A DNA stretch of 64,000 nt from Ylistrum balloti (GCF_031769215.1 NW_026782006.1:844070-908069); one strand, 5' to 3'; positions 1-62,944 are shown, counted from the first letter of the stretch. A program made the numbers and translations. The notes: generated by a model not told the origin, from the sequence alone.

Positions 1-3000
1 CAATAACGGTAAGAAATACAAACATTTCCCGAAACTATTTCACTACAAGCCGTTATAACATTTCCCCGCGAAACTATTTCACTACAAGTCGTTTCCCCAC
101 GAAACTATTTCACTACAAGCCGTTATAACATTTCCCCGTGAAACTATATCACTACAAGCCGTTATAACATTTCCCCACGAAAATATTTCACTACAAGCCG
201 TTATAACGTTTCCCCGGGAAATTATTTCACTACAAGCCGTTATAACATTTCCCCACGAAACTATTTCACTGCAAGCCGTTATAACATTTCCCAATGAAAC
301 TATTTCACTACAAGCCGTTTTAATATTTCCCAATGAAACTATTTCACTACAAGCCGTTATAACATTTCCCCGCGAAACTATTTCACTACAAGCCGTTATA
401 ACATTTCCCCGCGAAACTATTTCACTACAAGCCGTTATAACATTTCCCCGCGAAACTATTTCACTACAAGCCGTTTCCCCACGAAACTATTTCACTACAA
501 GCCGTTATAACATTTCCCCGCGAAACTATTTCACTACAAGCCGTTATAACATTTCCCCGTAAAACTATTTCACTACCAGCCGTTATAACATTTCCCCGCG
601 AAACTATTTCACTACAAGCCGTTATAACATTTCCCAATGAAACTATTTCACTACAAGCCGTTTCCCCGTGAAATTATTTTACTACAAGCCGTTTTAATAT
701 TTCCCCGTGAAACTATTTCACTACAAGCCGTTATAACATTTCCCCACGAAACTATTTCACTACAAGCCGTTATAACATTTCCCCGCGAAACTATTTCACT
801 ACAAGCCGTTATAACATTTCCCCGTGAAACTATTTCACTACCAGCCGTTATAACATTTCCCCGCGAAACTATTTCACTACAAGCCGTTATAACATTTCCC
901 AATGAAACTATTTCACTACAAGCCGTTTCCCCGTGAAATTATTTTACTACAAGCCGTTTTAATATTTCCCCGCGAAACTATTTCACTACAAGCCGTTATA
1001 ACATTTCCCCACGAAACTATTTCACTACAAGCCGTTATAACATTTCCCAATGAAACTATTTCACTACAAGCCGTTATAACATTTCCCCGCGAAACTATTT
1101 CACTACAAGCCGTTATAACATTTCCCCGTGAAATTATTTCACTACAAGCCGTGAAACTATTTCACTACAAGCCGTTATAACATTTCCCAATGAAACTATT
1201 TCACTACAAGCCGTTATAACATTTCCCCGCGAAACTATTTCACTACAAGCCGTTATAACATTTCCCCGTGAAACTATTTCACTACAAGCCGTTATAACAT
1301 TTCCCCACGAAACTATTTCACTACAAGCCGTTATAACATTTCCCCGCGAAACTATTTCACTACAAGCCGTTATAACATTTCCCCACGAAACTATTTCACT
1401 ACAAGCCGTTATAACATTTCCCCGGGAAATTATTTCACTACAAGCCGTTATAACATTTCCCCGTGAAACTATTTCACTACAAGCCGTTATAACATTTCCC
1501 CGTGAAACTATTTCACTACAAGCCGTTATAACATTTCCCAATGAAACTATTTCACTACAAGCCGAAACTATTTCACTACAAGCCGTTATAACATTTCCCC
1601 GTGAAACTATTTCACTACAAGCCGTTATAACATTTCCCAATGAAACTATTTCACTACAAGCCGTTATAACATTTCCCCGCGAAACTATTTCACTACAAGC
1701 CGTTATAACATTTCCCCACGAAACTATTTCACTACAAGCCGTTATAACATTTCCCAATGAAACTATTTCACTACAAGCCGTTATAACATTTCCCCGCGAA
1801 ACTATTTCACTACAAGCCGTTATAACATTTCCCCGTGAAACTATTTCACTACAAGCCGTTTCCCCACGAAACTATTTCACTACCAGCCGTTATAACATTT
1901 CCCCGCGAAACTATTTCACTACAAGCCGTTATAACATTTCCCAATGAAACTATTTCACTACAAGCCGTTATAACATTTCCCCGTGAAACTATTTCACTAC
2001 AAGCCGTTATAACATGAAACTATTTCACTACAAGCCGTTATACGAAACTATTTCACTACAAGCCGTTATAACATTTCCCCACGAAACTATTTCACTGCAA
2101 GCCGTTATAACATTTCCCCGTGAAACTATTTCACTACAAGCCGTTATAACATTTCCCCGTGAAACTATTTCACTACAAGCCGTTTCCCCACGAAACTATT
2201 TCACTACAAGCCGTTATAATTTTCCCAGCGAAACTATTTCACTACAAGCCGTTATAACATTTCCCCGCGAAAATATTTCACTACAAGCCGTTATAACGTT
2301 TCCCCGTGAAACTATTTCACTACAAGCCGTTATAACATTTCCCAATGAAACTATTTCACTACAAGCCGTTATAACATTTCCCCACGAAACTATTTCACTA
2401 CCAGCCGTAATAACATTTCCCCGTGAAACTATTTCACTACCAGCCGTTATGAAACTATTTCACTAACGTTATAACATTTCCCAATGAAACTATTTCACTA
2501 CAAGCCGTTATAACCCCGACGAAACTATTTCACTACAAGCCGTTATAACATTTCCCGTTATAACATTTGAAACTATTTCACTACAAGCCGTTATAACAAC
2601 GAAACTATTTCACTACAAGCCGTTATAACATTTCACTACCCGTTATAACATTTCCCCACGAAACTATTTCACTACAAGCCGTTTCCCCACGAAACTATTT
2701 CACTACAAGCCGTTATAACGTTTCCCCGGGAAATTATTTCACTACAAGCCGTTATAACATTTCCCCGGGAAATTATTTCACTACAAGCCGTTATAACATT
2801 TCCCGACGAAACTATTTCACTGCAAGCCGTTATAACATTTCCCAATGAAACTATTTCACTACAAGCCGTTATAACATTTCCCCACGAAACTATTTCACTA
2901 CAAGCCGTTATAACATTTCCCAATGAAACTATTTCACTACAAGCCGTTATAACATTTCCCTATTTCACTACAAGCCGTTATAAATTTCCCAATGAAACGC

Positions 3001-4805
3001 GAAACTATTTCACTACAAGCCGTTATAACATTTCCCAAGCCATTATAACATTTCCCCGCGAAACTATTTCACTACAAGCCGTTATAACATTTCCCCGTGA
3101 AACTATTTCACTAAAAGCCGTTATAACATTTCCCGACGAAACTATTTCACTGCAAGCCGTTATAACATTTCCCCGCGAAACTATTTCACTACAAGCCGTA
3201 ATAACATTTCCCCGTGAAACTATTTCACTACAAGCCGTTATAACATTTCCCGACGAAACTATTTCACTACAAGCCGTTATAACATTTCCCAATGAAACTA
3301 TTTCACTACAAGCCGTAATAACATTTCCCCGTGAAACTATTTCACTACAAGCCGTTATAACATTTCCCAATGAAACTATTTCACTACAAGCCGTTATAAC
3401 ATTTCCCGACGAAACTATTTCACTGCAAGCCGTTATAACATTTCCCAATGAAACTATTTCACTACAAGCCGTTATAACATTTCCCCCCCCCCAGGAAACT
3501 ATTTCACTACAAGCCGTTATAACATTTCCCGACGAAACTATTTCACTACAAGCCGTTATAACATTTCCCCCCCCAGGAAACTATTTCACTACAAGCCGTT
3601 ATAACATTTCCCAACGAAACTATTTCACTACAAGCCGTTATAACATTTCCCCGTGAAACTATTTCACTACAAGCCGTTTCCCCACGAAACTATTTCACTA
3701 CAAGCCGTTATAACGTTTCCCAGCGAAACTATTTCACTGCAAGCCGTTATAACATTTCCCAATGAAACTATTTCACTACAAGCCGTTATAACATTTCACT
3801 ACCAGCCGTTATAACATTTCCCCGCGAAACTATTTCACTACAAGCCGTTATAACATTTCCCAATGAAACTATTTCACTACAAGCCGTTATAACATTTCCC
3901 CCCCAGGAAACTATTTCACTACAAGCCGTTATAACATTTCCCAATGAAACTATTTCACTACAAGCCGTTATAACATTTCCCCCCCCCCCAGGAAACTATT
4001 TCACTACAAGCCGTTATAACATTTCCCCCAAGGAAACTATTTCACTACAAGCCGTTATAACATTTCCCAATGAAACTATTTCACTACAAGCCGTTATAAC
4101 ATTTCCCAATGAAACTATTTCACTGCAAGCCGTTATAACATTTCCCCCCCAGGAAACTATTTCACTACAAGCCGTTATAACATTTCCCAATGAAACTATT
4201 TCACTACAAGCCGTTATAACATTTCCCGACGAAACTATTTCACTACAAGCCGTTATAACATTTCCCAATGAAACTATTTCACTGCAAGCCGTTATAACAT
4301 TTCTCCACGAAACTATTTCACTACAAGCCGTTATAACATTTCCCAATGAAACTATTTCACTAAAAGCCGTTATAACGTTTCCCCGCGAAACTATTTCACT
4401 ACAAGCCGTTATAACATTTCCCAATGAAACTATATCACTACAAGCCGTTATAACATTTCCCCGCGAAACTATTTCACTGCAAGCCGTTATAACATTTCCC
4501 AATGAAACTATTTCACTACAAGCTGTTATAACATTTCCCCGCGAAACTATTTCACTACAAGCCGTTATAACATTTCCCCACGAAACTATTTCACTACAAG
4601 CCGTTATAACATTTCCCCGCGAAACTATTTCACTACAAGCCGTTATAACATTTCCCCCACGAAATTATTTCACTACAAGCCGTTATAACATTTCTCCGGG
4701 AAATTATTTCGCTACAAGCCATTATAACATTTCCCCGTGAAACTATTTCACTACAAGCCGTTATAACATTTCCACGCGAAGCTATTTCATTACAAGCCGT
4801 TTTAA
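1..4805. repeat. Satellite A: ~39-bp unit (GAAACTATTTCACTACAAGCCGTTATAACATTTCCCCGC), ~120 tandem copies; includes a ~30-bp deletion variant (lacks TTATAACA...) and poly-C variants
   Basis: Direct reading: uninterrupted head-to-tail repetition. The 13-aa periodicity in the six-frame ORFs (GNVITACSEIVSR) equals 39 bp. Array ends ~4805, 69 bp before exon acceptor at 4873. Confidence 0.97.
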
Positions 4806-4873
4806 ATTGAAAACCAAATTTTGAATTTCTTTGACGCTAGATTGAATACTGATAAACGACGTGTATAATTCAG

Positions 4874-5014
4874 GTGGACCTCGGTAATGTGACCAGAGTG
4901 TTCGGCATAGCCACACAGAGCTACAGGTCGTCATCTTACTATACACTAACCTACCAAGTCACTTACAGTCGCGATGGCAACATCTTCACGAACGCAACTG
5001 GTGCCAGCGGAAAT
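4874..5014 (+). CDS. Gene A, penultimate coding exon: discoidin (F5/8 type C, FA58C) domain, central part (VDLGNVTRVFGIATQSYRSSSYYTLTYQVTYSRDGNIFTNATGASGN)
   Basis: Acceptor ..aattcAG at 4872-4873. Single open frame of 47 codons. Donor GTGAGT at 5015-5020. Translation carries discoidin hallmarks (VDLG ... gv.TQG ... Y.V.YS.DG..W). Confidence 0.8.
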
Positions 5015-5228
5015 GTGAGTTGTTCCTTTCTTCAGCTTTGAAGTAACTTCACTGCGTTAAAATTATTTTTCTTTTTTTTCTAATTTGTTATAATCATCAT
5101 TGAGGCTTACAATAATGTTATGATCGACATACTGAAATAACTGGTTTAGAAATCCATACTTTTTGTACTAGAAATCATAAATATATAATCCAGATAAACA
5201 ATAAATTAGATTCTATTTTAAATTGCAG

Positions 5229-5375
5229 ATTTTTTCCGCGAGTGCGAGTTACGACAGCATAATTAAACATGACTTGATGACGCCAGTTGTTGCCCGATTT
5301 GTCCGCTTCTATCCAAGATTGTGGCACACAGGAGGCAAGCCTGGACTCAGAGTGGAGGTGTACGGCTGCTACTGA
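5229..5375 (+). CDS. Gene A, terminal coding exon: discoidin domain C-terminus (IFSASASYDSIIKHDLMTPVVARFVRFYPRLWHTGGKPGLRVEVYGCY*)
   Basis: Acceptor ttaaattgcAG ending 5228, phase 0 continuous with previous exon. Motif ..ARFVRF.P..W....LRVEVYGC is the canonical FA58C C-terminus. TGA at 5373-5375. Confidence 0.8.
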   Translation: MFSASASYDSIIKHDLMTPVVARFVRFYPRLWHTGGKPGLRVEVYGCY

Positions 5376-5394: not shown

Positions 5395-8276
5395 TTTCTA
5401 TAAAAACATTCAGTCACTTGTGTTCAGTCATATATCCAACAACAAATGCCAGAGGAAATGGGGACCTGTTGTCGTATATTTATTAGTTCTCATGTTCTGA
5501 ATGGTATTGATGTAAGCAGCGATTTGAAACCGTCTCCTTTATGTGCCATTGACAGCGACAATTCACTATTCGACCAGTCGACGAAACCGTGTATTCTTCT
5601 GGCAAATTGATGGGACGCATTTTCCATCTAATTTGTTTCATATTCCTCCACTCAAAAAACTGTTGTCTAGACTCTGTCTTTAAAGGAAACAGACGTTTTT
5701 AGAAAACTCACAGAAATGCAGTTTTCAAAGACTGCTTGTGCAGAAGATAAAATCTTGAATACTTTTATATTTCCATATTATCAATTTCATCATGATATCT
5801 GTTAGATCTTTGTCCCTTTTCTCTTCTCAAAATCACTGTCAGAACAATTATGCACAACCAGGGAGTAAGACATTTTTTTATAAATACTAAAAGTGACAAC
5901 AATAAGAAAAATAGGGAAAATGACACAATAATTTTTTAAAACAGACTTAACCTTTATAATCCAAATATCTGCTGGTGTCGAACATAGATAATCCATCAAG
6001 TTCACAATGTACACAGAATCGATTCTGTAGAGGTTTGTTATGTTTCTGTATTGTGAAGCTCTTTTCAGTAGTTCACCGACGTAAATGTAAGATAAGAGTA
6101 CCAGCAAATTTAAAAGTGGACAGTGGATGCCATCTGGAAACAATGAAGTTAAAATTTGGCAGGCACACCTATAATCAAGTCTGTCGTCATCCCTGTATTT
6201 TATCAGGGAGATATCTTAGAAATTCCTAGAAATGAAATAACGGTAACCTCTTTAGAGCCATTATTCAAAATGGCTACAATTGTCAGTGTAGCTGGAAATG
6301 TACCATACTCATTTAAAACACATACAGAACAGGTTCATGATCTTTAAATCAGATCCTTTCATGGTTCTCCAGAGATGAACAGAGTAAGAAAAAATACTCT
6401 GGACAGACTAAGACATATACTCACAATTACAATATACTTTGGTCAAATGAAATAAACTGAATTCGAGTGCTTGTTACCTGATTGACAATATCAATCGGCC
6501 TGATTAAGTCCTTCAATTATTTTTCTCAAATTTCAATTTATAGATCTTGTCATTATGTATATTTCCATGTGATATAAGAAGTATTTTTTTCGATGATTGT
6601 GATCTTTAACCTGTTTACCATATAGAGAGCATGGTATTGCCTTGATTGACTGAACACATAGTAACTGTTAATTTAAGAATCATCCAAAATTTTAAGCTAC
6701 GAGAGCCTTCCATGAATTGGCCTAAATATTTGAACCCGTTAGGTTCATCATTCAGAATTAACATCTTGAAATGTAAGAACTTTTTTTATTATATTTCGTG
6801 TGTACAAAAGAACTAGGATTTCTTGATTATGAGGGATTGCCTATCTATACGTTATGCAATCTTTCCTAAGAAGAAATACTGTCTAACGTGCGACAATATT
6901 GCAATAATTTAAATTGCCTTTTAATGATAAGGATACGGACCTCCACTGTTAATATTTCTCGGGAATCCGTGTAAACCCAGATTTGATAGTACATTTTGTA
7001 TTTAGAATGGCAGTTCTCAGTTTTGACAAAGGCTCGGTTTAACAGCTAAACGAGCCCACAATAAAACGTTACATGGTTCCTGTGAAGCTTTTTGACAATC
7101 TTCAGCACAACTCTAAGCATTTCTTTAATAAGAACATTTGATATCTCCACTGTACATTACCATACCCCATTCCAAACAGAAAGAATACCTTCAGCTCTTG
7201 TTACGATAGCTTTCCAAGAAAGGTGGACGGTGGTACAAATATATGGTTGTGAACTATACTATTTTTCGTGAAATCAAAGAAGAAGTAAGAAGGCGAAATC
7301 TGGTTGACAACATCAGTTGAGTTTGAAGGCAAGACCGTATAACAGACTTTTGGCAAACCTTTGAAAACTAACTGTTCCCCTCTGTTGGTTGACTTATTTT
7401 TTATTTCATACGAGGCTGAATTTATCGAGGAACTTATCAAAACAGGCAACAAATACTTTGCAAAGTCGATCAGTTTCACTTTCAGAGATATCAAAGACAT
7501 CTTGTCTTTGAATCAGAAATTTATTGACCACGTCCATCGTATCAACCCACCAGAATTGGAAATCGAGGACACAACAGACTCTTCTACAATAGCTTTCTTA
7601 TCTCGATCTTTACCTACAATGAACCAACATGGACAGTTTGACATCAAACTGTATGATAAGCGTAATGATTTCAATTTCCCTCGAGTAAAATTTCCATTTC
7701 TGGATAGAAACATTCCTGCATCTAAACTATGGTGTACACATGTCGCAGTTGATTCGGCATGTTCCCATTATCAAGACGTTCGAGCAAGACGTTTTTACTG
7801 GCGGACAAACTCTCAACACATTGTTTCAAAAGATGCAGATTGATGGAAATAATGGGAAAGTTTTACGGTCGTCATAGTGATGTCAATGACAAATATTCTA
7901 TTTCCTTGTATGATATGAAGCTGGACGTGTTTGGATTGACCAAGATTTACATGGCGTGTGTCATCGATAAAGCAAAAGACCTTTACTCTTGCGGAACACC
8001 CTGTCTTATTTTCTTGTACTTTTTCAGAATCTCCGAGTATATCTTTCTTTTGTTCATAGCTTGCCCTAGTTTCATTGAATTTAAGATTGGTTTATGGTTA
8101 TGTTGACATGTTAGTCTTGATTCTTGAAGCAAACGACATCATTCGGGAGCACAAAGCATTCATTTTCCTAAATTTTATCCAACAAAAATCTATCTTTTAA
8201 AGTTCAAGTTGCTGAGCTATATAAACAACTAAAAACGAGACTCAATGAAGCATCCTTTGTTTTAATATAGAAACGA

Positions 8277-13870: not shown

Positions 13871-13954
13871 CTGGATAATGTGACGTAGGTCTACGTCCTC
13901 CAAGTACACAGAACCTCCATTTGGTCCGGGCAGTACGTGCAAGTCCTGGGTCAT
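13871..13954 (-). CDS. Gene B candidate 5' coding exon (MTQDLHVLPGPNGGSVYLEDVDLRHIIQ) immediately abutting the 33-bp satellite
   Basis: Strong donor CAG|GTAATA at 13870. Phase 0 compatible with 12869 exon. Start may be the ATG at 13954 or an acceptor inside the satellite (ttggcAG|gctgg). Confidence 0.35.
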
Positions 13955-13956
13955 AC

Positions 13957-16565
13957 GACCAGCCTGCCAACAAAGGATAGATTTAAAATGACCAGCCTGC
14001 CAACAAAGGATAGACTTACACTGACAAGCCTGCCAACAAAGGACAGACTTACAACGACAAGCCTGCCAACAATGGATAGACTTACAATGACCAGCCTGCC
14101 AACAAAGGATAGACTTACAACAAGCAGCCTGTCAACAAAGGATAGACTTACAACAACCAGCCTGCCAACAAAGGATAGATTTACAACAACCAGCCTGCCA
14201 ACAAAGGATAGGCTTACAATGACCAGCCTGCCAACAAAGGATAGACTTACAACAACCACCTGCCAACAAAGGATAGACTTACAACAACCAGCCTGCCAAC
14301 AAAGGATAGACTTACAACAACCAGCCTGCCAACAAAGGATAGATGTACATCAACCAGCCTGTCAACAAAGGATAGATTTACAACAACCAGCCTGCCAACA
14401 AAGGATAGACTTACAACAACCAGCCTGCCAACAAAGGATAGATGTACATCAACCAGCCTGTCAACAAAGGATAGACTTACAACAACCAGCCTGCCAACAA
14501 AGGATAGACTTACAACAACCAGCCTGCCAACAAAGGATAGATGTACATCAACCAGCCTGCCAACAAAGGATAGATGTACATCAACCAGCCTGCCAACAAA
14601 GGATAGATGTACATCAACCAGCCTGTCAACAAAGGATAGACTTACAATGACCAGCCTGCCAACAAAGGATAGACTTACAACAAGCAGCCTGTCAACAAAG
14701 GATAGACTTACAACAACAAGCCTGCCAACAAAGGATAGACTTACAACAACCAGCCTGCCAACAAAGGATAGATGTACATCAACCAGCCTGCCAACAAAGG
14801 ATAGATGTACATCAACCAGCCTGTCAACAAAGGATAGACTTACAATGACCAGCCTGCCAACAAAGGATAGACTTACAACAAGCAGCCTGTCAACAAAGGA
14901 TAGACTTACAACAACCAGCCTGCCAACAAAGGATAGATTTACAACAACCAGCCTGCCAACAAAGGATAGATTTACAACAACCAGCCTGCCAACAAAGGAT
15001 AGATTTACATCAACCAGCCTGCCAACAAAGGATAGACTTACAACAACCAGCCTGCCAACAAAGGATAGATGTACATCAACCAGCCTGTCAACAAAGGATA
15101 GATGTACATCAACCAGCCTGTCAACAAAGGATAGACTTACAATGACCAGCCTGCCAACAAAGGATAGACTTACAATGACCAGCCTGTCAACAAAGAATAG
15201 ACTTACAACAACCAGCCTGCCAACAAAGGATAGATTTACAACAACCAGCCTGCCAACAAAGGATAGGCTTACAATGACCAGCCTGCCAACAAAGGATAGA
15301 CTTACAACAACCACCTGCCAACAAAGGATAGACTTACAACAACCAGCCTGTCAACAAAGGATAGACTTACAACAACCAGCCTGCCAACAAAGGATAGATG
15401 TACATCAACCAGCCTGTCAACAAAGGATAGACTTACAATGACCAGCCTGCCAACAAAGGATAGACTTACAACAAGCAGCCTGTCAACAAAGGATAGACTT
15501 ACAACAACCAGCCTGCCAACAAAGGATAGATTTACAACAACCAGCCTGCCAACAAAGGATAGGCTTACAATGACCAGCCTGCCAACAAAGGATAGACTTA
15601 CAACAACCACCTGCCAACAAAGGATAGACTTACAACAACCAGCCTGCCAACAAAGGATAGACTTACAACAACCACCTGCCAACAAAGGATAGACTTACAA
15701 CAACCAGCCTGTCAACAAAGGATAGACTTACAACAACCAGCCTGCCAACAAAGGATAGATGTACATCAACCAGCCTGTCAACAAAGGATAGACTTACAAT
15801 GACCAGCCTGCCAACAAAGGATAGACTTACAACAAGCAGCCTGTCAACAAAGGATAGACTTACAACAACCAGCCTGCCAACAAAGGATAGATTTACAACA
15901 ACCAGCCTGCCAACAAAGGATAGGCTTACAATGACCAGCCTGCCAACAAAGGATAGACTTACAACAACCACCTGCCAACAAAGGATAGACTTACAACAAC
16001 CAGCCTGCCAACAAAGGATAGACTTACAACAACCAGCCTGCCAACAAAGGATAGATTTACAACAACCAGCCTGCCAACAAAGGATAGATGTACATCAACC
16101 AGCCTGTCAACAAAGGATAGATTTACAACAACCAGCCTGCCAACAAAGGATAGACTTACAATGACCAGCCTGCCAACAAAGAATAGATTTACCACAACCA
16201 GCCTGCCAACAAAGGATAGATTACAACAACCAGCCTACAACAACCAGCCTGCCAACAAAGGATAGACTTACAACAACCACCTGCCAACAAAGGATAGATT
16301 TACAACAACCAGCCTGTCAACAAAGGATAGACTTACAACAACCAGCCTGCCAGCAAAGGATAGACTTACAATGACCAGCCTGCCAACACAGGATAGATGT
16401 ACATCAACCAGCCTGCCTACAAAGGATAGACTTACAATGACCAGCCTGCCAACAAAGGATAGACTTACAATGACCAGCCTGCCAACAAAGGATAGACTTA
16501 CAACAACCAGCCTGCCAACAATGGATAGATTTACATCAACCAGCCTGTTAACAAAGGAAAGACTC
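13957..16565. repeat. Satellite B: 33-bp unit (CCAGCCTGCCAACAAAGGATAGACTTACAACAA), ~79 copies
   Basis: Direct reading. 11-aa periodic ORFs (TSLPTKDRLTT / VVVSLSFVGRL) on both strands are repeat artefacts. Confidence 0.97.
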
Positions 16566-17118
16566 TAGTGAGGATGTAGTTAACGTCTATATCTATACAA
16601 AGAATGTACACACACGTGAATCTTTTGTTTTTATTTAATTAGATATAAGCTTTCTTTTACCCTTTTTTATCAGAAGTATACTTGCTAGTATTCAATCCAA
16701 TTAACAATTTGGCTTCAGAGTTTTCAATGTGCTTCTATAAATAGGCAAACATGTTTCCTTGTAGAATAAACATCGTGATTTATTGTACTATCCGATGATA
16801 TCGATATAACGTAAAATATCGTAGGTCGTCAGGTTTGAGTTCAGTAACGTATTAATAAGGCACAATACACCTTGTTTATTGAATATCAAAATATTAGATG
16901 CTGACAGATACAACTAAGAAGCGTCCTGTTATCGTAGATCGTAAAGTTATCCAATAACACCTCTGGGAGTCTGCAATGATTATAAGGAAGGTATTACGTT
17001 CAAGCATGTTGTTTCTGGTTATCTCTCTCGGGAAATTTCAGACATTCAAGTTACCTGTAAGGAAACGTTACCGTCATCCTGGGCCGCTACGACGACACTC
17101 GGGTATCTGATGTCGAAA

Positions 17119-17700
17119 ACTCTGAAATGGGAAACCTTATTGTAGAACATGACAACTTGATGTCTAACATTCTGAAATGGGAAACCTTATTATAGAACAT
17201 GACAACTTGATGTCTAACATTCTGAAATGGGAAACCTTATTATAGAACATGACAACTTGATGTCTAACATTCTGAAATGGGAAACCTTATTATAGAACAT
17301 GACAACTTGATGTCTAACATTCTGAAATGGGAAACCTTATTATAGAACATGACAACTTGGTGTCTAACATTCTGAAATGGGAAACCTTATTATAGAACAT
17401 GACAACTTGATGTCTAACATTCTGAAATGGGAAACCTTATTATAGAACATGACAACTTGGTGTCTAACATTCTGAAATGGAAACCTTATTATAGAACATG
17501 ACAACTTGATGTCTAACATTCTGAAATGGAAAACCTCTGAAATAGGAAACTTTGTTGTAGAACATGACCACGTGATATCTAACATCCTGAAATGGGAAAC
17601 CTTGTTGTAGAACATGACCACGTGATATCTAACATCCTGAAATGGGAAACCTTGTTGTAGAACATGGCTACGTGATGTCAAACTCTCCGATATAGGAAAT
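17119..17700. repeat. Satellite C: 50-bp unit (TCTGAAATGGGAAACCTTATTATAGAACATGACAACTTGATGTCTAACAT), ~11 copies, decaying to ~17800
   Basis: Unit start positions 17121, 17171, 17221 ... read directly. Confidence 0.9.
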
Positions 17701-24262: not shown

Positions 24263-25040
24263 CTTAACGAGGTTTTAGTTGAAGAGAGCAATCCCTGTCG
24301 AAATTTTAGTTGATGATAGATCGCTTACAGGGTTTCAGTTGAAGAGAGAGCTCTCTACCAAAGGTTCAATTGAATGAAGGGAGATTCCTGACAAAGGATC
24401 AATTGAAGAGAGATTTCTAACGTAGTTTTAGTTGAAGAGAGATTCCTGATAAAGGATTAATTGAAGAAAGATTCCTGACAAAGGATTAATTGAATGAAGA
24501 GAGATTTATAACAAAGGTTTAATTGAAGAGATTTCTAACGTAGTTTTAGTTGAAGAGAGATTCCTGACAAAGGATTAACTGAATGAAGAGAGATTTCTAA
24601 CAAAGGTTTAATTGAAGAGATTTCTAACGTAGTTTTAGTTGAAGAGAGATTCCTGACAAAGGATTAACTGAATGAAGAGAGATTTCTAACAAAGGTTTAA
24701 TTGAAGAGATTTCTAACGTAGTTTTAGTTGAAGAGAGATTCCTGACAAAGGATTAACTGAATGAAGAGATATTTCTAACAAAGGTTTAATTGAAGAGATT
24801 TCTAACGTAGTTTTAGTTGAAGAGAGATTCCTGACAAAGGATTAATTGAATGAAGAGAGATTTCTAACAAAGGTTTAATTGAAGAGAGATTTCTAACGTA
24901 GTTTTAGTTGAAGAGAGATTCCTGACAAAGGATTAATTGAATGAAGAGAGATTCCCGACAAAGGATTAATTGAATGAAGAGAGATTCCTAACAAAGGATT
25001 AATTGAAGAGAGATTTCTATGGTAGTTTTTAGTTGAAGAG
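24262..25040. repeat. Satellite H: compound ~89-bp unit (TTTAGTTGAAGAGAGATTCCTGACAAAGGATTAACTGAATGAAGAGAGATTTCTAACAAAGGTTTAATTGAAGAGATTTCTAACGTAG), ~8 copies, with internal ~45-bp sub-repeat
   Basis: Direct reading. Period measured 24541 -> 24630. Confidence 0.85.
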
Positions 25041-25264
25041 AATGATCAACAAGACCTTAAAAATGGTTTCAGCTGTAACATGTAAACAGCATAGGTGGCT
25101 GGAGAGATGTACCTGTTGCTTTTGTTGTAAGAAACACTTGGGGTTAGCGGGTGATGTAGAAAAGTATGTCTTGTCCTTGATTTCCGATTCTGGTGGGTTT
25201 ATTCGATAGACATGGTCAATAAATGTCTTACTACTCAATGAGACATCATCAAGATGATTGGGGG

Positions 25265-28200
25265 ATCTAACATAGGTAACTATATACCAATAGTCGGTTG
25301 AAGATCTAACATAGGTAATTATATACCAATAGTGTGTTGGTAGATCTAACATAGGTAACTATATACCAATAGTGTGTTGGTAGATCTAACATAGGTAACT
25401 ATATACCAATAGTCTGTTGAAGATCTAACATAGGTAACTATATATCAATAGTGTGTTGAAGATCTTACATAGGTAACTATACACCAATAGTGTGTTGGTA
25501 GATCTAACATAGGTAACTATATACCAATAGTGTGTTGGTAGATCTAACATAGGTAACTATATACCAATAGTGTGTTGGTAGATCTAACATAGGTAACTAT
25601 ATACAAATAGTGTGTTGGTAGATCTAACATAGGTAACTATATACCAATAGTGTGTTGGTAGATCTAACATAGGTAACTATATACCAATAGTGTGTTGAAG
25701 ATCTAACATAGGTAACTATATACCAATAGTGTGTTGGTAGATCTAACATAGGTAACTATATACCAATAGTGTGTTGAAGATCTAACATAGGTAACTATAT
25801 ACCAATAGTGTGTTGAAGATCTAACATAGGTAACTATATACCAATAGTCTGTTGGTAGATCTAACATAGGTAAATATATACCAGTAGTCTGTTGGTAGAT
25901 CTAACATAGGTAACTATATACCAATAGTGTGTTGGTAGATCTAACATAGGTAACTATATACCAATAGTCTGTTGGTAGATCTAACATAGGTAAATATATA
26001 CCAGTAGTCTGTTGGTAGATCTAACATAGGTAACTATATACCAATAGTGTGTTGGTAGATCAAACATAGGTAACTATACACCAATAGTGTGTTGGAAGAT
26101 CTAACATAGGTAACTATATACCAATAGTGTGTTGGTAGATCTAACATAGGTAACTATATACCAATAGTGTGTTGGTAGATCTAACATAGGTAACTATATA
26201 CCAATAGTGTGTTGGTAGATCTAACATAGGTAACTATATACCAATAGTGTGTTGGTAGATCTAACATAGGTAACTATATACCAATAGTGTGTTGAAGATC
26301 TAACATAGGTAACTATATACCAATAGTGTGTTGGTAGATCTAACATAGGTAACTATATACCAATAGTGTGTTGAAGATCTAACATAGGTAACTATATACC
26401 AATAGTGTGTTGAAGATCTAACATAGGTAACTATATGTTGGTAGATCTAACATAGGTAACTATATACCAATAGTGTGTTGGAAGATCTAACATAGGTAAC
26501 TATATACCAATAGTGTGTTGGTTAGATCTAACATAGGTAACTATATACCAATAGTGTGTTGGTAGATCTAACATAGGTAACTATATACCAATAGTGTGTT
26601 GAAGATCTAACATAGGTAACTATATACCAATAGTGTGTTGTGTTGGAAGATCTAACATAGGTAACTATATACCAATAGTGTGTTGTGTTGGTAGATTTAA
26701 CATAGGTAACTATATACCAAAAGTGTGTTGTGTTGGTAGATCTAACATAGGTAACTATATACCAATAGTGTGTTGAAGATCTAACATAGGTAACTATACA
26801 CCAATAGTGTGTTGGAAGATCTAACATAGGTAACTATATACCAATAGTGTGTTGAAGATCTAACATAGGTAACTATATACCAATAGTGTGTTGAAGATCT
26901 AACATAGGTAACTATATACCAATAGTGTGTTGGTAGATCTAACATAGGTAACTATATACAAATAGTGTGTTGGTAGATCTAACATAGATAACTATATACC
27001 AATAGTGTGTTCGTAGATCTAACATAGGTAACTATATACCAATAGTGTGTTGAAGATCTAACATAGGTAACTATATACCAATAGTGTGTTGGTAGATCTA
27101 ACATAGGTAACTATATACCAATAGTGTGTTGAAGATCTAACATAGGTAACTATACACCAATAGTGTGTTGAAGATCTAACATAGGTAACTATATACCAAT
27201 AGTGTGTTGGAAGATCAATAGTCTGTTGAAGATCTAACATAGGTAACTATATACCAATAGTGTGTTGTAGATCTAACATAGATCTAACATAGGTAACTAT
27301 ATACCAATAGTGTGTTGGTAGATCTAACATAGGTAACTATATACCAATAGTTGTGTTGGAAGATCTAACATAGGTAACTATATACCAATAGTGTGTAACT
27401 ATATACCAATAGTGTGTTGGTAGATCTAACATAGGTAACTATATACCAATAGTGTGTTGGAAGATCTAACATAGGTAACTATATACCAATAGTGTGTTGG
27501 TAGATCTAACATAGGTAACTATATACCAATAGTGTGTTGGTAGATCTAACATAGGTAACTATATACCAATAGTGTGTTGGTAGATCAAACATAGGTAACT
27601 ATACACCAATAGTGTGTTGGAAGATCTAACATAGGTAACTATATACCAATAGTGCGTTGGAAGATCTAACATAGGTAACTATATACCAATAGTGTGTTGG
27701 TAGATCTAACATAGGTAACTATATACCAATAGTGTGTTGGTAGATCTAACATAGGTAACTATATACCAATAGTGTGTTGGTACTAACATATACCAATAGT
27801 GTGTTGAAGATCTAACATAGGTAACTATATACCAATAGTGTGTTGGTAGATCTAACATAGGTAACTATATACCAATAGTGTGTTGGTAGATCTAACATAC
27901 GTAACTATATACCAATAGTGTGTTGAAGATCTAACATAGGTAACTATATACCAATAGTGTGTTGGTAGATCTAACATACGTAACTATATACCAATAGTGT
28001 GTTGAAGATCTAACATAGGTAACTATATACCAATAGTGTGTTGGTAGATCTAACATAGGTAACTATATACCAATAGTGTGTTGGTAGATCTAACATAGGT
28101 AACTATATACCAATAGTGTGTTGAAGATCTAACATAGGTAACTATACACCAATAGTGTGTTGGTAGATCTAACATAGGTAACTATATACCAATAGTGTTT
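25265..28200. repeat. Satellite I: 40-bp unit (AGATCTAACATAGGTAACTATATACCAATAGTGTGTTGGT), ~73 copies
   Basis: Period 40 (25321 -> 25361). Contains AGATCT palindrome per unit. Confidence 0.97.
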
Positions 28201-33177: not shown

Positions 33178-33274
33178 CTAATGACTTGAGTCCCGCAGTG
33201 TTCAGAGTCTCCATACAGGCCGTCAAATCAATGAAGAGCTCTTTCTCCACCTGGCTTCTGGTCCAACCTCCAAG
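33178..33274 (-). CDS. Gene C exon: LGGWTRSQVEKELFIDLTACMETLNTAGLKSL
   Basis: Minus acceptor tatatcAG (33275-33276). Donor AG|GTGATT at 33177. 97 nt, phase 0 in, phase 1 out, consistent with neighbours. Confidence 0.6.
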
Positions 33275-35572: not shown

Positions 35573-35664
35573 TCTATTTTGAAGTGCTTTAAGAGTGTCA
35601 AGGTCTTTTTTACTCAGGTTTTTCAATGCTGCCTTAGCAACTGTTGGCATTATTGTCCCAACAT
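35573..35664 (-). CDS. Gene C exon: (D)VGTIMPTVAKAALKNLSKKDLDTLKALQNR
   Basis: Minus acceptor tatttcAG (35665-35666). Perfect donor GTAAGT (35572-35567). 92 nt, phase 1 in, phase 0 out. Confidence 0.7.
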
Positions 35665-35804
35665 CTGAAATATCTATGAAAAAGAACAAACAACATTTTT
35701 ATTGGCATCATTCTTACAAAATCACATCTGATTGGTCATAGATCAATGTTACAGGGCCAAAGGTCACACATCACAACTTTCGAAATGAATATTTGTGTCA
35801 TAAT

Positions 35805-37415
35805 TCCACCCTGTAACATGTCAGTTTCCAATCCTTGTCAAACTCACCCTGTAACATGTCAGTTTCCAATCCTTGTCAAACTCGACCTGTAACATGTCAG
35901 TTTCCAATCCTTGTCAAACTCACCCTGTAACATGTCAGTTTCCAATCCTTGTCAAACTCGACCTGTAACTTGTCAGTGTCCAATCCTTGTCAAACTCGAC
36001 CTGTAACTTGTCAGTGTCCAATCCTTGTCAAACTCACCCTGTAACATGTCAGTTTCCAATCCTTGTCAAACTCACCCTGTAATTGGTCAGTTTCAAACCC
36101 TGATCAAACTCAACCTGTAATAGGTCAGTTTCAAACCCTGATCAAACTCACCCTGTAATTGGTCAGTTTCAAACCCTAATCAAACTCACCCTGTAATATA
36201 TCAGTTTCAAACCCTGATCAAACTCACCCTGTAATAGGTCAGTTTCAAACCCTGATCAAACTCACCCTGTAATAGGTCAGTTTCAAACCCTGATCAAACT
36301 CACCCTCTCATATGTCAGTTTCCAATCCTTGTCAAACTCACCCTGTAACATGTCAGTTTCCAATCCTTGTCAAACACCCTGTAACATGTCAGTTTCCAAT
36401 CCTTGTCAAACTCACCCTGTAACATGTCAGTGTCCAATCCTTGTCAAACACCCTGTAACATGTCAGTGTCCAATCCTTGTCAAACACCCTGTAACATGTC
36501 AGTGTCCAATCCTTGTCAAACTCACCCTGTAACATGTCAGTTTCAAACCCTGATCAAACTCACCCTGTAATAGGTCATTTTCAAACCCTGATCAAACTCA
36601 CCCTGTAATATGTCAGTTTCCAATCTTTGTCAAACTCACCCTGTAATGTGTCAGTTTCCAATCCTTGTCAAACTCACATTGTAATTGGTCAGTTTCAAAC
36701 CCTTATCAAACTCACCCTGTAATATGTCAGTTTCACACCCTGATCAAACTCACCCTGTAATATGTCAGTTTCCAATCCTTGTCAAACCCACCCTGTAATA
36801 TGTCAGTTTCACACCCTGATCAAACTCACCCTGTAATAGGTCATTTTCAAACCCTGATCAAACTCACCCTGTAATTGGTCATTTTCAAACCCTGATCAAA
36901 CTCACCCTGTAATTGGTCATTTTCAAACCCTGATCAAACTCACCCTGTAATTGGTCATTTTCAAACCCTGATCAAACTCACCCTGTAATTGGTCATTTTC
37001 AAACCCTGATCAAACTCACCCTGTAATAGGTCATTTTCAAACCCTGATCAAACTCACCCTGTAATATGTCAGTTTCCAATCTTTGTCAAACTCACCCTGT
37101 AATGTGTCAGTTTCCAATCCTTGTCAAACTCACATTGTAATTGGTCAGTTTCAAACCCTTATCAAACTCACCCTGTAATATGTCAGTTTCACACCCTGAT
37201 CAAACTCACCCTGTAATATGTCAGTTTCACACCCTGATCAAACTCACCCTGTAATATGTCAGTTTCAAACCCTGATCAAACTCACCCTGTGATATGTCAG
37301 TTTCCAATCCTTGTCAAACCCACCCTGTAATATGTCAGTTTCACACCCTGATCAAATTCACCCTGTTATATGTCAGTTTCACAACCTGATCAAACTCACC
37401 CTGTAATATGTCAGT
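35805..37415. repeat. Satellite L: 38-bp unit, two interleaved subfamilies (TCAGTTTCCAATCCTTGTCAAACTCACCCTGTAACATG / TCAGTTTCAAACCCTGATCAAACTCACCCTGTAATAGG), ~42 copies
   Basis: Period 38 (35821 -> 35859). Every unit carries GTGAGT on the minus strand. Confidence 0.95.
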
Positions 37416-37522
37416 CTCAATGCCTGCTCGTCTTCGAAGTTTCTGAAACCTATCATCATCTACATGAAGACCTCTACTACGCTCCGCGGACCCATACCCA
37501 TAAGTCTGTTTTGAACCAGCAT
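37400..37522 (-). CDS. Gene C exon: (D)AGSKQTYGYGSAERSRGLHVDDDRFQKLRRRAGIETDILQ(G)
   Basis: Minus acceptor tttttccttAG (37523-37524). Donor GTGAGT is the first satellite-L unit (37399-37394). 123 nt, phase 1/1. Joins in frame to 40681-40759 and 35573-35664. Confidence 0.65.
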
Positions 37523-37599: not shown

Positions 37600-38400
37600 A
37601 AAAGACATATCCTCACTGCCAACTTGTGACAATGTCATCCATGCCAATGATTTCTGTATTTTACAACTCGGCACCAATTGTTAGGGCCAATTATCTAACT
37701 CCACTTCAGACTCCAGATATAAATAACCTAATGATAATAATAATGGGCCAATCTCTGTTTTACCCATTTTATCTAAGATACTGGAAAGGCATGTACATAC
37801 CCATTTTATCTAAGATACTGGAAAGGCATGTACATACCCATTTTATCTAAGATACTGGAAAGGCATGTACAAACACAAGCTCATTGTCTCATCAAAGGCT
37901 TATACATTCCTATCTTCCCATTCAAGGTAGAATGAAGTTTTACAACTCATGTATTTTTCCCCATTTTATTTATTGCTGTACTGTATGGTCTGGATGTGAT
38001 GCAAATCATATGGGTAAATTATATAAAGCCCAGAAACAGGCAGAAAGAGTTATACTTAATGTGCCATATGATACACCTTCCTCTGATATGTCTTCTGTTT
38101 TAAAATGGATTCCAACTGAAAAATATTTTAAATTCAAGAGAATATGTTTGTTTTACAAATGTATTCATGGATTGGTGCCAGATTACTTAAGCCACAATAT
38201 CAAACTTGCTAATGATGAACACAGAAGATGTATCAGGTTCTCCGTGGCAAATAATGTTATTGTTCCTAAGCACAGAACTACATTTTACTCAAAACAATTT
38301 TTTATATCTGGTGCTCAGGACTGGAATAGTCTATCCAGTCTGTTAAAAGACATTCAAAATTTTAATTCTTTTAGAGACCAACTAGTTCATTACTTTTGAA
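37600..38400 (+). mobile_element. Non-LTR (LINE) retrotransposon remnant: N-proximal RT fragment (..PILSKILERHV..) fused to the conserved ORF2 C-terminal domain; 5'-truncated and internally deleted
   Basis: 171-aa ORF 37884-38399 shows the widespread LINE ORF2 C-terminal pattern (FPHFIYCCTVWSGC........L..AQKQAERVI.......S..M...LKWIP.EKYFKFKRICLFYKCIHGLVPDYL......A.....R.........PK.RT.FYSKQFFISGAQDWNSL). Upstream ..NYLTPL..PILSKILERHV matches the RT 'NYRPISLL...SKIlEk' region. (ATT)n microsatellite follows at 38745-38790. Confidence 0.7.
37740..37870. repeat. 37-bp tandem triplication (CCCATTTTATCTAAGATACTGGAAAGGCATGTACATA) inside the LINE RT fragment
   Basis: Direct reading. Duplicates the PILSKILERHVH coding segment. 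Confidence 0.85.
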
Positions 38401-48059: not shown

Positions 48060-49475
48060 AGCCTATGTATGAAATTGAAATTTGTCAAATCCAACATGGC
48101 AACCTTAAGTCATTTTGTTATTCAATCAGTCTTTCAATTAATGATGCATAACCAGTATGTATATGAGAGGCCTCTATCAAACAAGGTATTCTCAAGAAAT
48201 AGCGATAATAAACTTTTTCAGATCTGTAGTAACATTGAAATTGTTTACAACATTAGGACCCCAGGGAATCTTAATGTAAAATCTTAGTAAAATCCGACAA
48301 TAACACACAAAAACTGTCAAAATTCAAGACTGATGCATGTTGGCAATTTATTTGCATTAGTTCCCAAATTTGCCCTGCCCAATGAAAGATTCAGGGTAGT
48401 TCATCTATGAAATATCAGAAAAATCCATTCATTGTTTCTCAAGAAATAGGATGGTTTAAAGACAAGCAAATGAACCACAGACCCCAGATGAAGGACTCTT
48501 TGAACAGCTGTCCAATTGATGATAAGAAGCTAACAAGAGATCCCAGAGGGATCTTGGCGCCCACCATTTGAGGATCTGTTTTCAGTTCTTGAAGATTTGT
48601 TTTTTTTTTTTGTTTGTTTGTTACAGGTGTTGTAAATGTTCATGAACTGGTCTTCACTGAATGTACTCAATGATGGCACAAGATATTTTTATTAAGCACC
48701 TATTAGCAAATATCATTTGAAAAAGATCCTAAAGTATTATTAGATAGCAGTCAGTTACAGGTGGATAATGGACAATATGCTTGTGCTGTATTACTGTCGA
48801 CATCCAAGATGGCTGTCTGTGGGCCACCTTGATTTCAAATCGGTCCAAAAAAGGTACAATGCACAACTAGGGACAAAGGGAAACCAATATCTATAAAATA
48901 TCAGAAGGATCCATCCAGGACTTCCTCAGATATAGCAGTAACAAGATTTTACTCTCAAAATTCAAGATGGCTGCCTGTCAGCCATATTGATTTCGGATCA
49001 GTCCAAAAAGGTATAATGCACAACTTGGAACCAAAGGGAACCTGCATATGAAATTTGAGAAAGATCCATCCAGTACTTTCCAAGAAATAGCAGTAACAAA
49101 CTTATACTTCCAAAATCCAAGATGGCCACCTGTCGGCCATCTTGAATTCGAATCAGTCCAAAAAAGGTACAATGCACAACTAGGGACAAAGGGGAAACTG
49201 CATATGAAATTTGAGAAAGATCCATCCAGTACTTTTCCAGAAATAGCGGTAACAAACTTTTACTTCCAAAATCCAAGATGGCCACCTGTCTGCCATCTTC
49301 AATGGGAATCAGTTCAAAAAAGGTACAATGCACAACTAGGGACCAAGGGGAACCTGCATATGAAATTTGAGAAAGATCCATCCAGTACTTTTCCAGAAAT
49401 AGCGGTAACAAGAATTGTTTACGGACGGACGGACCGGACGCCTAGACGGACGGACGACGGACCACGGACGCAGGG
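48060..49475. repeat. Repeat Q: ~156-bp unit (..CAAGATGGCCACCTGTCGGCCATCTTGA..TCAGTCCAAAAAAGGTACAATGCACAACTAGGGACAAAGG..CATATGAAATTTGAGAAAGATCCATCCAGTACTTTCCAAGAAATAGCAGTAACAA..). ~4 near-identical copies (48806-49430) preceded by ~3 strongly diverged copies (48060-48560); array ends in a (GGAC)n-like tract 49418-49470
   Basis: Unit starts 48806, 48963, 49117, 49275. Diverged copies share CTCAAGAAATAG(C/G) and CATCTATGAAATATCAGAAAAATCCAT blocks. Confidence 0.8.
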
Positions 49476-49658: not shown

Positions 49659-50595
49659 CAATACACTTAGAGATATCAGGTCTTCTGTAGACTTTCCACC
49701 TCTATTGGCTGATGATAAAGGCCTTGCAGATTGCTGAGATTGGCCAAAACAATGCGATAATCCTTCAGTCACCGGAGAGGAGACTCTGTCCAATAAGCAT
49801 TCATCAGCTCCTGAGAATCTATTACATATGGAAGTCTGTCTTGAAGATCTCCCATGCTGTGGAGAAGGGGGAGGTGGTGCTGCGGGTGTAAAAGCCAACC
49901 TAGACTTTCGAGCACGTTGGGTACATTGTGTTGCAGGTGTAAAAGCCATGGCAGACTTTCGATGGGGGGGAGGTGGGGGAGGTGGTGTTGCGGATGTAAA
50001 AGCCACGGCAGACTTTGGAGGTGGGGGAATTGGTGTTGCAGGTGTAAAAGCCATGGCAGACTTTGGAGGTGGGGGAGGTGGGGGAGGTGGGGGAGGTGAT
50101 GTTGCGGATGTAAAAGCTACGGCAGACTTCGGAGGTGGGGGAGGTGGTGTTCCGGGTGTAAATGCCATGGCAGTCTTTGGAGGTGGGGGAGGTGGTGCTG
50201 CGGGTGTAAAAGCTAACGCAGACTTTGGAGGTGGGGGAATTGGTGTTGCAGGTGTAAAAGCCATGGCAGACTTTCGATGGGGGGGAATGGGTGGTCCGGA
50301 TGTAAAAGTCTTGGCAGATTTTGGAGGTGGGGGAATTGGTGTTGCAGGTGTAAAAGCCATGGCAGACTTTGGAGGTGGGGGAGGTGGTGTTGCGGATGTA
50401 AAAGCCACGGCAGACTTTGGAGGTGGGGGAGGTGGTGCTGCTGATGTAAAAGCCATGGCAGACTTCGGAGGTGGGGGAGGTGGTGCTGTGGGTGTAAAAG
50501 CCATGGCAGACTTTTGACGGGGGGAAATTGGTGGTCCGGATGTAAAATCCTTGGCAGACTTTGGAGGTGGGGAAATTGGTGTTGCAGATAAATAC
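49659..50595 (-). CDS. Candidate large exon of a proline-rich protein: ~12 x 60-bp coding repeats ([K/R]SA[M/V]AFT[P/S]A[T/A]PPPPPP) followed by unique tail ..SPQHGRSSRQTSICNRFSGADECLLDRVSSPVTEGLSHCFGQSQQSARPLSSANRGGKSTEDLISLSVL
   Basis: One continuous open frame of 937 nt on minus strand. Bounded by acceptor ctattgcAG (50596-50597) and donor GTATGT (49658-49653). GC-rich relative to flanks. Repeat varies at synonymous/conservative positions. Confidence 0.5.
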
Positions 50596-62485: not shown

Positions 62486-62944
62486 TTTAGACATTGTTTT
62501 CTTTGCTATGACATCCTCATTTCTGAATCAAAATAAAGCTCAGCATTAAACATGATAAATTATCCTGTTTGACCACTCATTTAAACTCTTGTGTTTGTTG
62601 TATATAGCACATAATCTGGTTCATTTTCTTTCAGCAATACAAGGGTTAAGCATAACTTTGACCTTTGAATTAAAATGACTTTGATATAGTCATACAACCA
62701 TGTGACTCCAGAATCAAGTATCTACTTTCACAGACTTAGTTTGACATTTGACCTCAATAAAACCTTTGGGAGGAACTTTTGATCTCAGTGTTACATGCCT
62801 ATACTGTTCAGTAGACAACACAGGCTATTATATTGTTCTGTATTATGCTCATCCTTCAAACTAGAATAACTAAAACCAATAAATACACAATACGCATTAC
62901 TTGTAACTTCAGTATGAATGTATTTTAACATTAAGTACCCATAC

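Follow-up and report, generated by a model that had tools for sequence, protein, structure and literature searches.

Minisatellites whose repeat units span an intron/exon boundary have been described in amphioxus and in human genes. The amphioxus 'mirage' minisatellites are found in Adh3, the globin genes BflGb6 and BflGb9, troponin C and PGBD5; their units cross the boundary on its 5' or 3' side and carry the AG or GT signals, and the mRNAs were reported to be normal (PMC3087553, PMC3902484). In the view of the same authors, a real exon can arise from the exonic portion of a unit (PMC3087553, PMC3902484). The human cases comprise the 37-bp variable number of tandem repeats (VNTR) of F7 IVS7 together with IFI6 (6-16), CBS IVS13, LMNB2 and PDGFA, all donor-side (PMC1557585). 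In F7 IVS7 the first monomer spans the exon-intron boundary and identical 5' pseudo-sites follow the authentic donor. These pseudo-sites were functional in experiments, yet the most upstream site was chosen, which was used to argue for 5'-to-3' scanning; pseudo-sites of perfect consensus (CV 100) shifted splicing toward themselves (PMC1557585). Here we describe a 64-kb stretch of the genome of the scallop Ylistrum balloti (GCF_031769215.1, NW_026782006.1:844070-908069, 64,000 nt; the window) in which four arrays overlap annotated splice junctions, L and T on donors and B and C on acceptors. Junction-spanning minisatellites are already known from amphioxus and human, and what the scallop arrays add is a mollusc host, up to 79 copies, strong sites and local density. 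The literature that we searched contained no relevant acceptor-side VNTR outside amphioxus and no paper on the Y. balloti nuclear genome.

We consider it quite probable that short ancestral introns were inflated by minisatellites born in place, that B, C and L were seeded across junctions, and that the exon-proximal copy of the splice site is the one used. A preliminary description, made from the window sequence, had read these arrays as satellites that supply or adjoin splice signals and carry cryptic sites. That they adjoin or supply such signals agrees with the RefSeq protein models and the orthologous loci; the framing in terms of cryptic sites misses the origin of B, C and L as copies of junctions. 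Tandem Repeats Finder (TRF) reports about 21 different minisatellite arrays in the window, whose units measure 26-156 bp and which are 0.1-4.9 kb long; together they cover 61% of its length. When all of them were compared with each other, no common unit, homology or flank was found.

Arrays on the junctions of genes B and C

The four arrays lie in two minus-strand genes. Gene B encodes the Y. balloti 'EGF-like repeat and discoidin I-like domain-containing protein 3' (EDIL3-like; protein search) and has orthologues in Argopecten, Pecten and Mizuhopecten. Gene C is LOC132545763 of Ylistrum balloti; in an exhaustive protein search its C-terminus matched XP_060065435.1 at 100%, and the closest relative of the protein is an Argopecten irradians PARP4-like protein. 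Both proteins were mapped exactly onto the window, and every intron has one unique GT-AG solution.

Satellite L (35807-37429, minus strand, 38-bp unit, about 42.5 copies) is found at the donor of gene C exon X (37400-37522, minus strand, DAGSKQ...ETDILQ), an exon placed by the exact mapping of XP_060065435.1. The unit consists of the last 21-30 nt of exon X followed by the donor GTGAGTTT, with 20 of 21 positions identical to the exon end (25 of 30 over the longer extent), and the authentic donor, GTGAGT at 37399-37394, lies inside unit 1. The preliminary description had given this exon and its GTGAGT donor in agreement with XP_060065435.1. The array starts at least 21 nt inside the exon, not at the donor as had been thought, and GTGAGT is kept in 32 of the approximately 42 units, not in every unit; none is present on the plus strand. 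The copies at +38 and +76 are weakened to GTGAAT and GTGGGT, and identical AGG|GTGAGT copies follow from +114 nt. The intron leading to exon Y (35573-35673, minus strand, from the mapping of XP_060065435.1) is 1726 nt long; satellite L makes up 92% of it, and its 3' end has 133 unique nt. Use of a pseudo-donor in L would shift the frame by the 38-nt step, or the extension would meet a TGA about 56 nt past the exon.

Satellite B (13958-16564, minus strand, 33-bp unit, 79 copies) adjoins gene B exon 3 (13871-13963, minus strand, AGRMTQDL...HIIQ), which is given by the exact mapping of protein P0023 and is the same exon in Pecten and Argopecten. Its unit contains about 24 nt of intron 3' end (GTAAGTCTATCCTTTGTTGGCAG) and about 9 nt of exon start (GCTGGTYGT), identical to the start of exon 3 at eight of nine positions. 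The exon begins at 13963 (GCTGGTCGTATG..., AGRMTQ), right behind the TTGGCAG of the last unit, so satellite B itself supplies the acceptor. The minus-strand TTGGCAG that had been noticed next to a candidate exon is correctly identified, with the exon start at 13963 in place of 13954 and the motif in 58 of the 79 units rather than in all of them. The looser TTGNCAG occurs 77 times, and neither form is present on the plus strand. An ATG start of a first coding exon at 13954 was ruled out, since both the RefSeq protein and its orthologues have further sequence upstream (..NVSLQ|AGR). Pseudo-acceptors in B are spaced by a 33-nt step, which is in frame, and are stop-free for the last five units. 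As a separate observation, 46 of the 79 units also hold GTAAGT on the minus strand, 10 nt downstream of the pseudo-acceptor; the unit layout can be read as a 23-nt mini-intron plus a 10-nt mini-exon, and the equivalent layout in T is 26 + 17 nt.

Array C (17108-17699, minus strand, 50-bp unit, about 12 copies) is situated at the preceding exon of the same gene, exon 2 (17055-17121, minus strand, (G)VFDIRYP...SLQ, exact protein mapping). About 36 nt of intron 3' end (...GGTTTCCCATTTCAG) and about 14 nt of exon start make up the unit. The array covers the first 14 nt of the exon, to which the unit is identical at 11 of 14 positions, and the last unit provides the acceptor (...GGTTTCCCATTTCAG|A). 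The sequence CATTTCAG is kept in 11 of 12 units, on the sense strand only. The oldest, most distal units carry TTTGACATCA, which is the ancestral exon state of Pecten and Argopecten and unlike the present Ylistrum exon.

Satellite T (60326-62483, minus strand, 43-bp unit, 50 copies, 98% identical) begins at the last base of a 40-nt gene C exon (62483-62522, minus strand, (R)NEDVIAKKTMSKM, from the mapping of XP_060065435.1), so that the overlap with the exon is 1 nt. The annotated donor, GTAAGT at 62482-62477, forms the first six intron bases of unit 1. CAGG|GTAAGT is present in all 50 units, on the sense strand only, which places 49 further copies behind the annotated donor. RefSeq also predicts a 17-nt coding micro-exon within the array (62397-62413, minus strand, GAACACTGTATAGCAGG, EHCIAG). 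This sequence occurs only inside the T unit, where it is flanked by AG and GT, and because 51 units have an identical AG|...|GT segment its placement at 62397-62413 is arbitrary. The predicted micro-exon gives the 3n+2 nt needed between exon 62483, with its phase-0 end, and exon 50595 for a frame homologous to that of Argopecten. It may be a genuine repeat-derived exon of the kind that the amphioxus model predicts or, just as well, the gene predictor's way of fixing the frame. We also note that the Ylistrum exons 63027-62945 and 62522-62483 (gap 62523-62944) align to a single Argopecten exon (locus L003, 28169-28273), and that the positions of the neighbouring introns are off by a few codons between the two. 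This difference could stem from the gain or sliding of an intron, from misalignment of low-complexity sequence or from an error in the model.

For B, C and L the direction of origin is settled by the orthologous loci. Pecten maximus and Argopecten irradians share all nine coding exons of gene B and the positions of its introns. Its intron 1, which holds arrays C-F, measures 5271 nt in Ylistrum, 1714 nt in Pecten and 525 nt in Argopecten, and intron 2, which holds array B, measures 3091, 643 and 405 nt, respectively. TRF found no large array in either intron of Pecten or Argopecten, the Pecten intron 1 having just a 41-bp repeat of 3.9 copies. Coding sequence is conserved at the exon starts that were copied into the units, both in the first case (GCTGGTCGT compared with TCTGGCCGT and TCTGGCCCT) and in the second (GTTTTCGACATCA compared with GTGTTTGACATCA). 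In the syntenic Argopecten gene the junction of array L is present as a single copy, ...CTGACTGACAGAGAGCCTG|GTGAGTT, in a 2.2-kb intron in which no array with a score of at least 150 was detected. Units A, B, C, F, K, L, M, N, O, R, S and T had no match in the orthologous loci. As the orthologous introns are short or array-free and have the same junctions in single copy, B, C and L arose in place in the Ylistrum lineage. Each of them is a tandem duplication of a segment across a pre-existing junction, the junction being older than the array; B, C and L carry splice sites because the repeat unit was copied from a real junction, exon sequence and splice site included.

Comparison with described systems and splice-site choice

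The amphioxus mirages are among the systems closest to these arrays in kind. In B, C and L the unit likewise contains an intron end with the adjacent exon and the terminal unit is the real junction, and L, T, B and C all hold sense-orientation copies of the splice signal; in B, C and L, moreover, the junction is older than the array. Array T shares the junction-spanning feature weakly, with 1 nt of exon, and satellite A, which ends 68 nt from its exon, lacks it. The exon-from-unit scenario proposed for amphioxus corresponds to what RefSeq annotates for array T. The two systems differ in host (a mollusc here, a cephalochordate there), in local density (four cases within 64 kb here), in copy number (12-79 here and 3-6 units in the BflGb6 globin haplotypes) and in unit length (33-50 bp here and about 150 bp in the globins). 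The strength of the copied sites also sets the scallop arrays apart from the known cases.

On the donor side the F7 VNTR is a close parallel, with a unit of 37 bp compared with 38 bp in L and with an authentic donor that is followed by pseudo-sites at unit spacing, as in L and T. The most upstream site is used in F7 by experiment and in L and T by annotation. F7 has 5-9 repeats with 4 nt of exon per unit, whereas the repeats number about 42 in L, with 21-30 nt of exon, and 50 in T. The F7 donor is weak (UGG/gugggu), in contrast to the near-consensus copies of L and T (AGG|GTGAGT and AGG|GTAAGT). The human list is limited to donors, while B and C of the scallop are acceptor-side arrays. Intron gain in the potato gene for RNA-dependent RNA polymerase (RdRp) is ascribed to tandem duplication of an AGGT-containing exon segment (PMC4974935). 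On that account the two systems would be alike in that tandem duplication makes extra splice sites and the mRNA is kept by splicing between copies. They would differ in that the scallop introns pre-exist in all three genera, and duplication here lengthens an intron and does not create it; a possible exception is the short intron that separates exon 62483 from the T micro-exon.

Taken together, the observations are most consistent with ancestral introns of a few hundred nucleotides that would have grown via locally born arrays, each with an unrelated unit. For B, C and L the seed would have been a 33-50-bp segment comprising the splice site and 9-30 nt of exon, and its tandem duplication and later expansion would have produced about 12-79 sense-oriented copies of the site. 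The mRNA would be left unchanged only if the exon-proximal copy were used, which is the first copy for the donor arrays L and T and the last for the acceptor arrays B and C. The annotated site is indeed the exon-proximal copy in all four arrays, according to the RefSeq predictions and orthology. By analogy with the human F7 IVS7 VNTR, the other donor copies would be silent because, among identical 5' sites, the most upstream one prevails. Exon definition is probably a further aid: it would favour an acceptor that is paired with a real exon of 67 or 93 nt and that exon's donor, which we regard as a reasonable guess. Nonsense-mediated decay would clear the frame-shifted or stop-containing products of L pseudo-donors, and in B the GTAAGT just 10 nt after each pseudo-acceptor may block recognition of those copies. 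Other arrays stop short of the next exon; the distance from array end to acceptor is 68 nt for A, 53 nt for R, 86 nt for O and 133 nt for L, and this spacing of 53-133 nt leaves the branch point and pyrimidine tract intact. The suggestion in the preliminary description that such arrays affect splicing fidelity, or are constrained by it, is plausible, and the experiments on the F7 VNTR bear on it.

Several points weigh against this interpretation. The use of the exon-proximal sites and the silence of the pseudo-sites are inferred from predicted RefSeq models and orthology. Leaky use of acceptors in B would add stop-free, in-frame blocks of 11 amino acids, beyond the reach of nonsense-mediated decay, and the literature searched gave no experimental precedent for choosing the last of approximately 79 acceptor copies. 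The Argopecten intron near the T junction differs in phase and is not clearly orthologous; with just 1 nt of exon shared, this makes a junction origin weaker for T and its seed less certain. Site strengths were scored with a crude position weight matrix (PWM), so that all bit scores given here are indicative. Sites of at least 8 bits number 34 donors on the minus strand of L, 50 donors on the minus strand of T and 76 acceptors on the minus strand of B, far above the remaining array-strands; the rate of GTRAGT outside the arrays is 4e-4 per nt per strand. With near-consensus copies in L and T some leakage is conceivable, and since CV 100 pseudo-sites in F7 drew splicing toward themselves, silence of the scallop copies cannot simply be assumed.

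We considered four other explanations, two of which concern what the sites do and where they came from. The repeated sites might be functional, serving as regulated alternative sites (B, for instance, giving in-frame insertions of 11 residues), as platforms for U1 or U2AF binding or as recursive-splicing ratchets for long repeat-filled introns. The in-frame, stop-free pseudo-acceptors over five units of B, the acceptor-like and donor-like motifs that B and T units both hold in the sense orientation, the annotated T micro-exon and the weakened GTGAAT and GTGGGT copies nearest the true donor of L would all be in keeping with such a role. We nevertheless regard it as unlikely. The arrays are absent from related scallops that have the same genes, which means that no function is conserved; the 23-26 nt between donor and acceptor motifs within a unit are too short for an intron; and the amphioxus and human precedents report normal splicing. 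L and T do resemble recursive splice sites (AG|GTRAGT) in having an AG close before a strong GTRAGT, but they fail the pattern through an extra G (CAG|G|GTRAGT) and poor pyrimidine tracts. Reading AG|G|GTRAGT, they are 1 nt off a zero-length recursive site, so that a G would be added in each round, and no sense-strand acceptor of at least 6 bits was found in L or T. The order of events might also be reversed, with arrays present first and the genes later taking exon ends and splice sites from a terminal unit. The unit numbers of L and T are not whole (42.5 and 50.2), T has 1 nt in common with its exon, and the 17-nt RefSeq exon consists purely of T repeat, all of which such exonization would accommodate. 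Against it, the exon starts and ends resembling the units belong to coding sequence that has orthologues in Pecten and Argopecten, which lack the arrays; gene B intron positions are identical in three genera; and the ancestral exon codon state survives in the oldest C units. The orthologous loci largely refute the reversed order for B, C and L; for T, with its junction read ...SKM|GTAAGTTCACAT, the order is less clear. Overall we judge it very unlikely.

The two remaining explanations would place the cause outside the junctions. If the arrays were cargo of mobile elements, such as Helentron-borne bivalve satellites or those carried by miniature inverted-repeat transposable elements (MITEs), they would have been inserted beside splice sites. 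At least one dispersed family is present, since array P is 75-79% identical to an Argopecten 155-bp satellite. Array P apart, no common flanks or termini and no dispersed copies were found among the window arrays and the orthologous loci. No two arrays have flanks or units in common, their units are without match in the orthologous loci, and the units of B, C and L hold host exon sequence, so that mobile cargo seems a highly improbable source. We attach the least weight of all to an artefact, that is, an assembly error or a gene-prediction choice that produced the arrays or their junctions with exons. The gene models are predictions, and the T micro-exon, whose position is arbitrary among 51 identical copies, is possibly a predictor's frame-fixing; yet the arrays show graded divergence, variant subfamilies and higher-order periods, as real minisatellites typically do, and the exon boundaries are fixed independently by orthologues in two other genera. 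Seeding of B, C and L across junctions in otherwise short introns thus remains our preferred interpretation.

Satellite A and other features of the window

Satellite A (22-4805, plus strand, 39-bp unit, about 123 copies by TRF, with the start called at about 22 or 30) occupies the visible part of an intron of gene A and is without exon sequence. The unique 3' end of the intron comprises 68 nt (4806-4873, plus strand), in which CTGAT at 4849-4853 resembles a branch point and AG at 4872-4873 is the acceptor; the junction reads ...tataattcAG|GTGGAC and the exon starts 69 nt past the end of the satellite. The acceptor is fixed by an in-frame TAA at 4853-4855 and by the lack of any other AG between 4856 and 4873. 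The penultimate coding exon (4874-5014, plus strand, VDLGNVTRV...GASGN; donor GTGAGT at 5015-5020) and the last coding exon (5229-5375, plus strand; stop codon TGA at 5373-5375) together encode two thirds of an F5/8 type C domain, its C-terminal part (F5_F8_type_C, PF00754; E=5.7e-15, profile positions 39-127). A phase-0 intron of about 336 nt is found at the identical position (..SFLQ|VDLG) in the Argopecten irradians orthologue, and the encoded peptide is 73% identical without gaps. Pecten maximus has a matching acceptor before VDLG, the upstream exon being outside the Pecten locus examined. The placing of the satellite end at 4805 and of the acceptor at 4872-4873 in the preliminary description is confirmed by TRF, the sequence, the domain match and the orthologous acceptor, and by orthology the acceptor is taken to be real and in use.

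The 68-nt intron tail shows no conservation across the genera, the exon alone aligning, and the satellite A unit had no blastn match in the orthologous loci. Satellite A would have been seeded within the intron, leaving the branch point, pyrimidine tract and AG untouched; for a seed in an ancestral intron of about 336 nt, a gap of 68 nt to the acceptor is unremarkable. Its 4.8 kb contain no GTRAGT and 13 YAG on the sense strand (motif count). Taken alone, satellite A is ordinary intron inflation and offers essentially no cryptic sites. The start of the window, CAATAACG|GTAAGA at positions 1-14, was considered as the end of the upstream exon with its donor (8.7 bits by the PWM). Positions 1-8 were ruled out as that exon, the orthologues ending it in ..SFLQ or ..SWLQ, which '..IT' does not fit; gene A's intron therefore extends past the window start.

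Gene A (plus strand) is an EDIL3-like paralogue convergent with gene B (minus strand), and only its last two coding exons lie in the window. The proteins of genes B and C are both assigned to one 1.73-Mb Y. balloti contig. By exact protein mapping, the coding exons of gene B (minus strand) are 22439-22393, 17121-17055 and 13963-13871 (exons 1-3), 12869-12768, 12483-12294 and 12087-11974 (exons 4-6), and 11333-11166, 9592-9459 and 8429-8277 (exons 7-9). The mapping of XP_060065435.1 gives the coding exons of gene C (minus strand) as 63027-62945, 62522-62483, the 17-nt micro-exon inside array T and 50595-49659 in the first part; 45165-45106, 40759-40681 and 37522-37400 (exon X) in the middle; and 35673-35573 (exon Y), 33274-33178 and 32866-32571 in the last part. 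A first model of the exon that we termed Z, with an upstream acceptor, was dropped for the annotated start at 33274.

Some further features were noted. A 48-bp repeat, array Q (49969-50589), lies within gene C exon 50595-49659 (minus strand) and is coding; it encodes proline-rich repeats of 16 amino acids (PPPPKSAMAFTPA...) in this large exon, and at the corresponding position the Argopecten orthologue carries a coding repeat of 81 bp (locus L003, 29453-30000). Satellite P (156 bp, 48802-49411) is the array that is 75-79% identical to the 155-bp satellite, which is located in a different intron of the Argopecten orthologue (L003 1808-3259). It is the sole array here of a family common to scallop genera, and so may be mobile-element-borne. 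The intron upstream of exon X contains a plus-strand open reading frame (ORF) of 182 amino acids (37851-38396), antisense to gene C, that resembles the C-terminal region of a non-long-terminal-repeat (non-LTR) retrotransposon. A Pfam scan of this ORF and of the gene C C-terminus gave no match. A dispersed repeat is found at 7515-7588, downstream of gene B, and at 25155-25228, in the intergenic region between B and C; the copies are 85% identical and are accompanied by related ORF fragments (..FIDHVHRINPPE..) at 7343-7840 (plus strand) and 25032-25358 (minus strand), and they probably represent a transposon remnant. In residues 1-91 of the RefSeq model P0001, which lie beyond the window end, the 38-residue block MSCEVEDQYEVLDCLQLEQYKAPVVQFSKDRILPIPSK is present twice at the N-terminus, which suggests tandemly duplicated exons upstream of the window.

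Frequency and meaning of junction-spanning arrays

The number of junction-spanning arrays was compared with random seeding. When each array was collapsed to one unit and 21 arrays were placed randomly in 25.6 kb with 36 annotated junctions, 1.1-1.3 junction-spanning arrays were expected against four observed (P(>=4) of 0.02-0.04). The excess is mild at most, and the window was picked for its unusual look. Several intronic arrays are present in the orthologous Argopecten gene (46 kb), none of them junction-derived. A safe conclusion is that junction-spanning duplications are not avoided and, with short ancestral introns, are expected now and then.

The gene C orthologue of Argopecten has private intronic arrays of its own, one of 38 bp x 183 (7 kb; L003 32278-39303) and one of 47 bp x 66 in two blocks (L003 9706-14638). 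With such large arrays in Argopecten, intron inflation by private minisatellites is not restricted to Ylistrum. A junction origin was considered for the 47-bp and 38-bp arrays, which lie 47 and 98 nt after exons, and is not supported, since their flank-to-unit scores equal those of shuffled sequence.

A stronger proposal would join two claims, namely that junctions in Ylistrum are preferred birthplaces of minisatellites and that the 17-nt piece of T repeat is a genuine coding micro-exon needed for the frame. We find it doubtful that both hold. If they did, a satellite would have become part of the coding structure of a gene, and the genome would be a large natural panel of competing identical splice sites.

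Arrays of identical, near-consensus sites right behind a real site are natural competition experiments for splice-site choice. To these the region adds, in a mollusc, donor arrays in which 42-50 strong copies follow each other and, as their mirror image, acceptor arrays with about 12 and 79 copies, and for three of the four (B, C and L) related species retain the ancestral single-copy state. Should such arrays be common genome-wide, they would offer a cheap test of the reach of the exon-proximal-site rule. For annotation, gene predictors can run exons through such arrays, the T micro-exon being an example. For the scallop itself, the region shows intron growth to be driven by the local birth of minisatellites and not by transposons.

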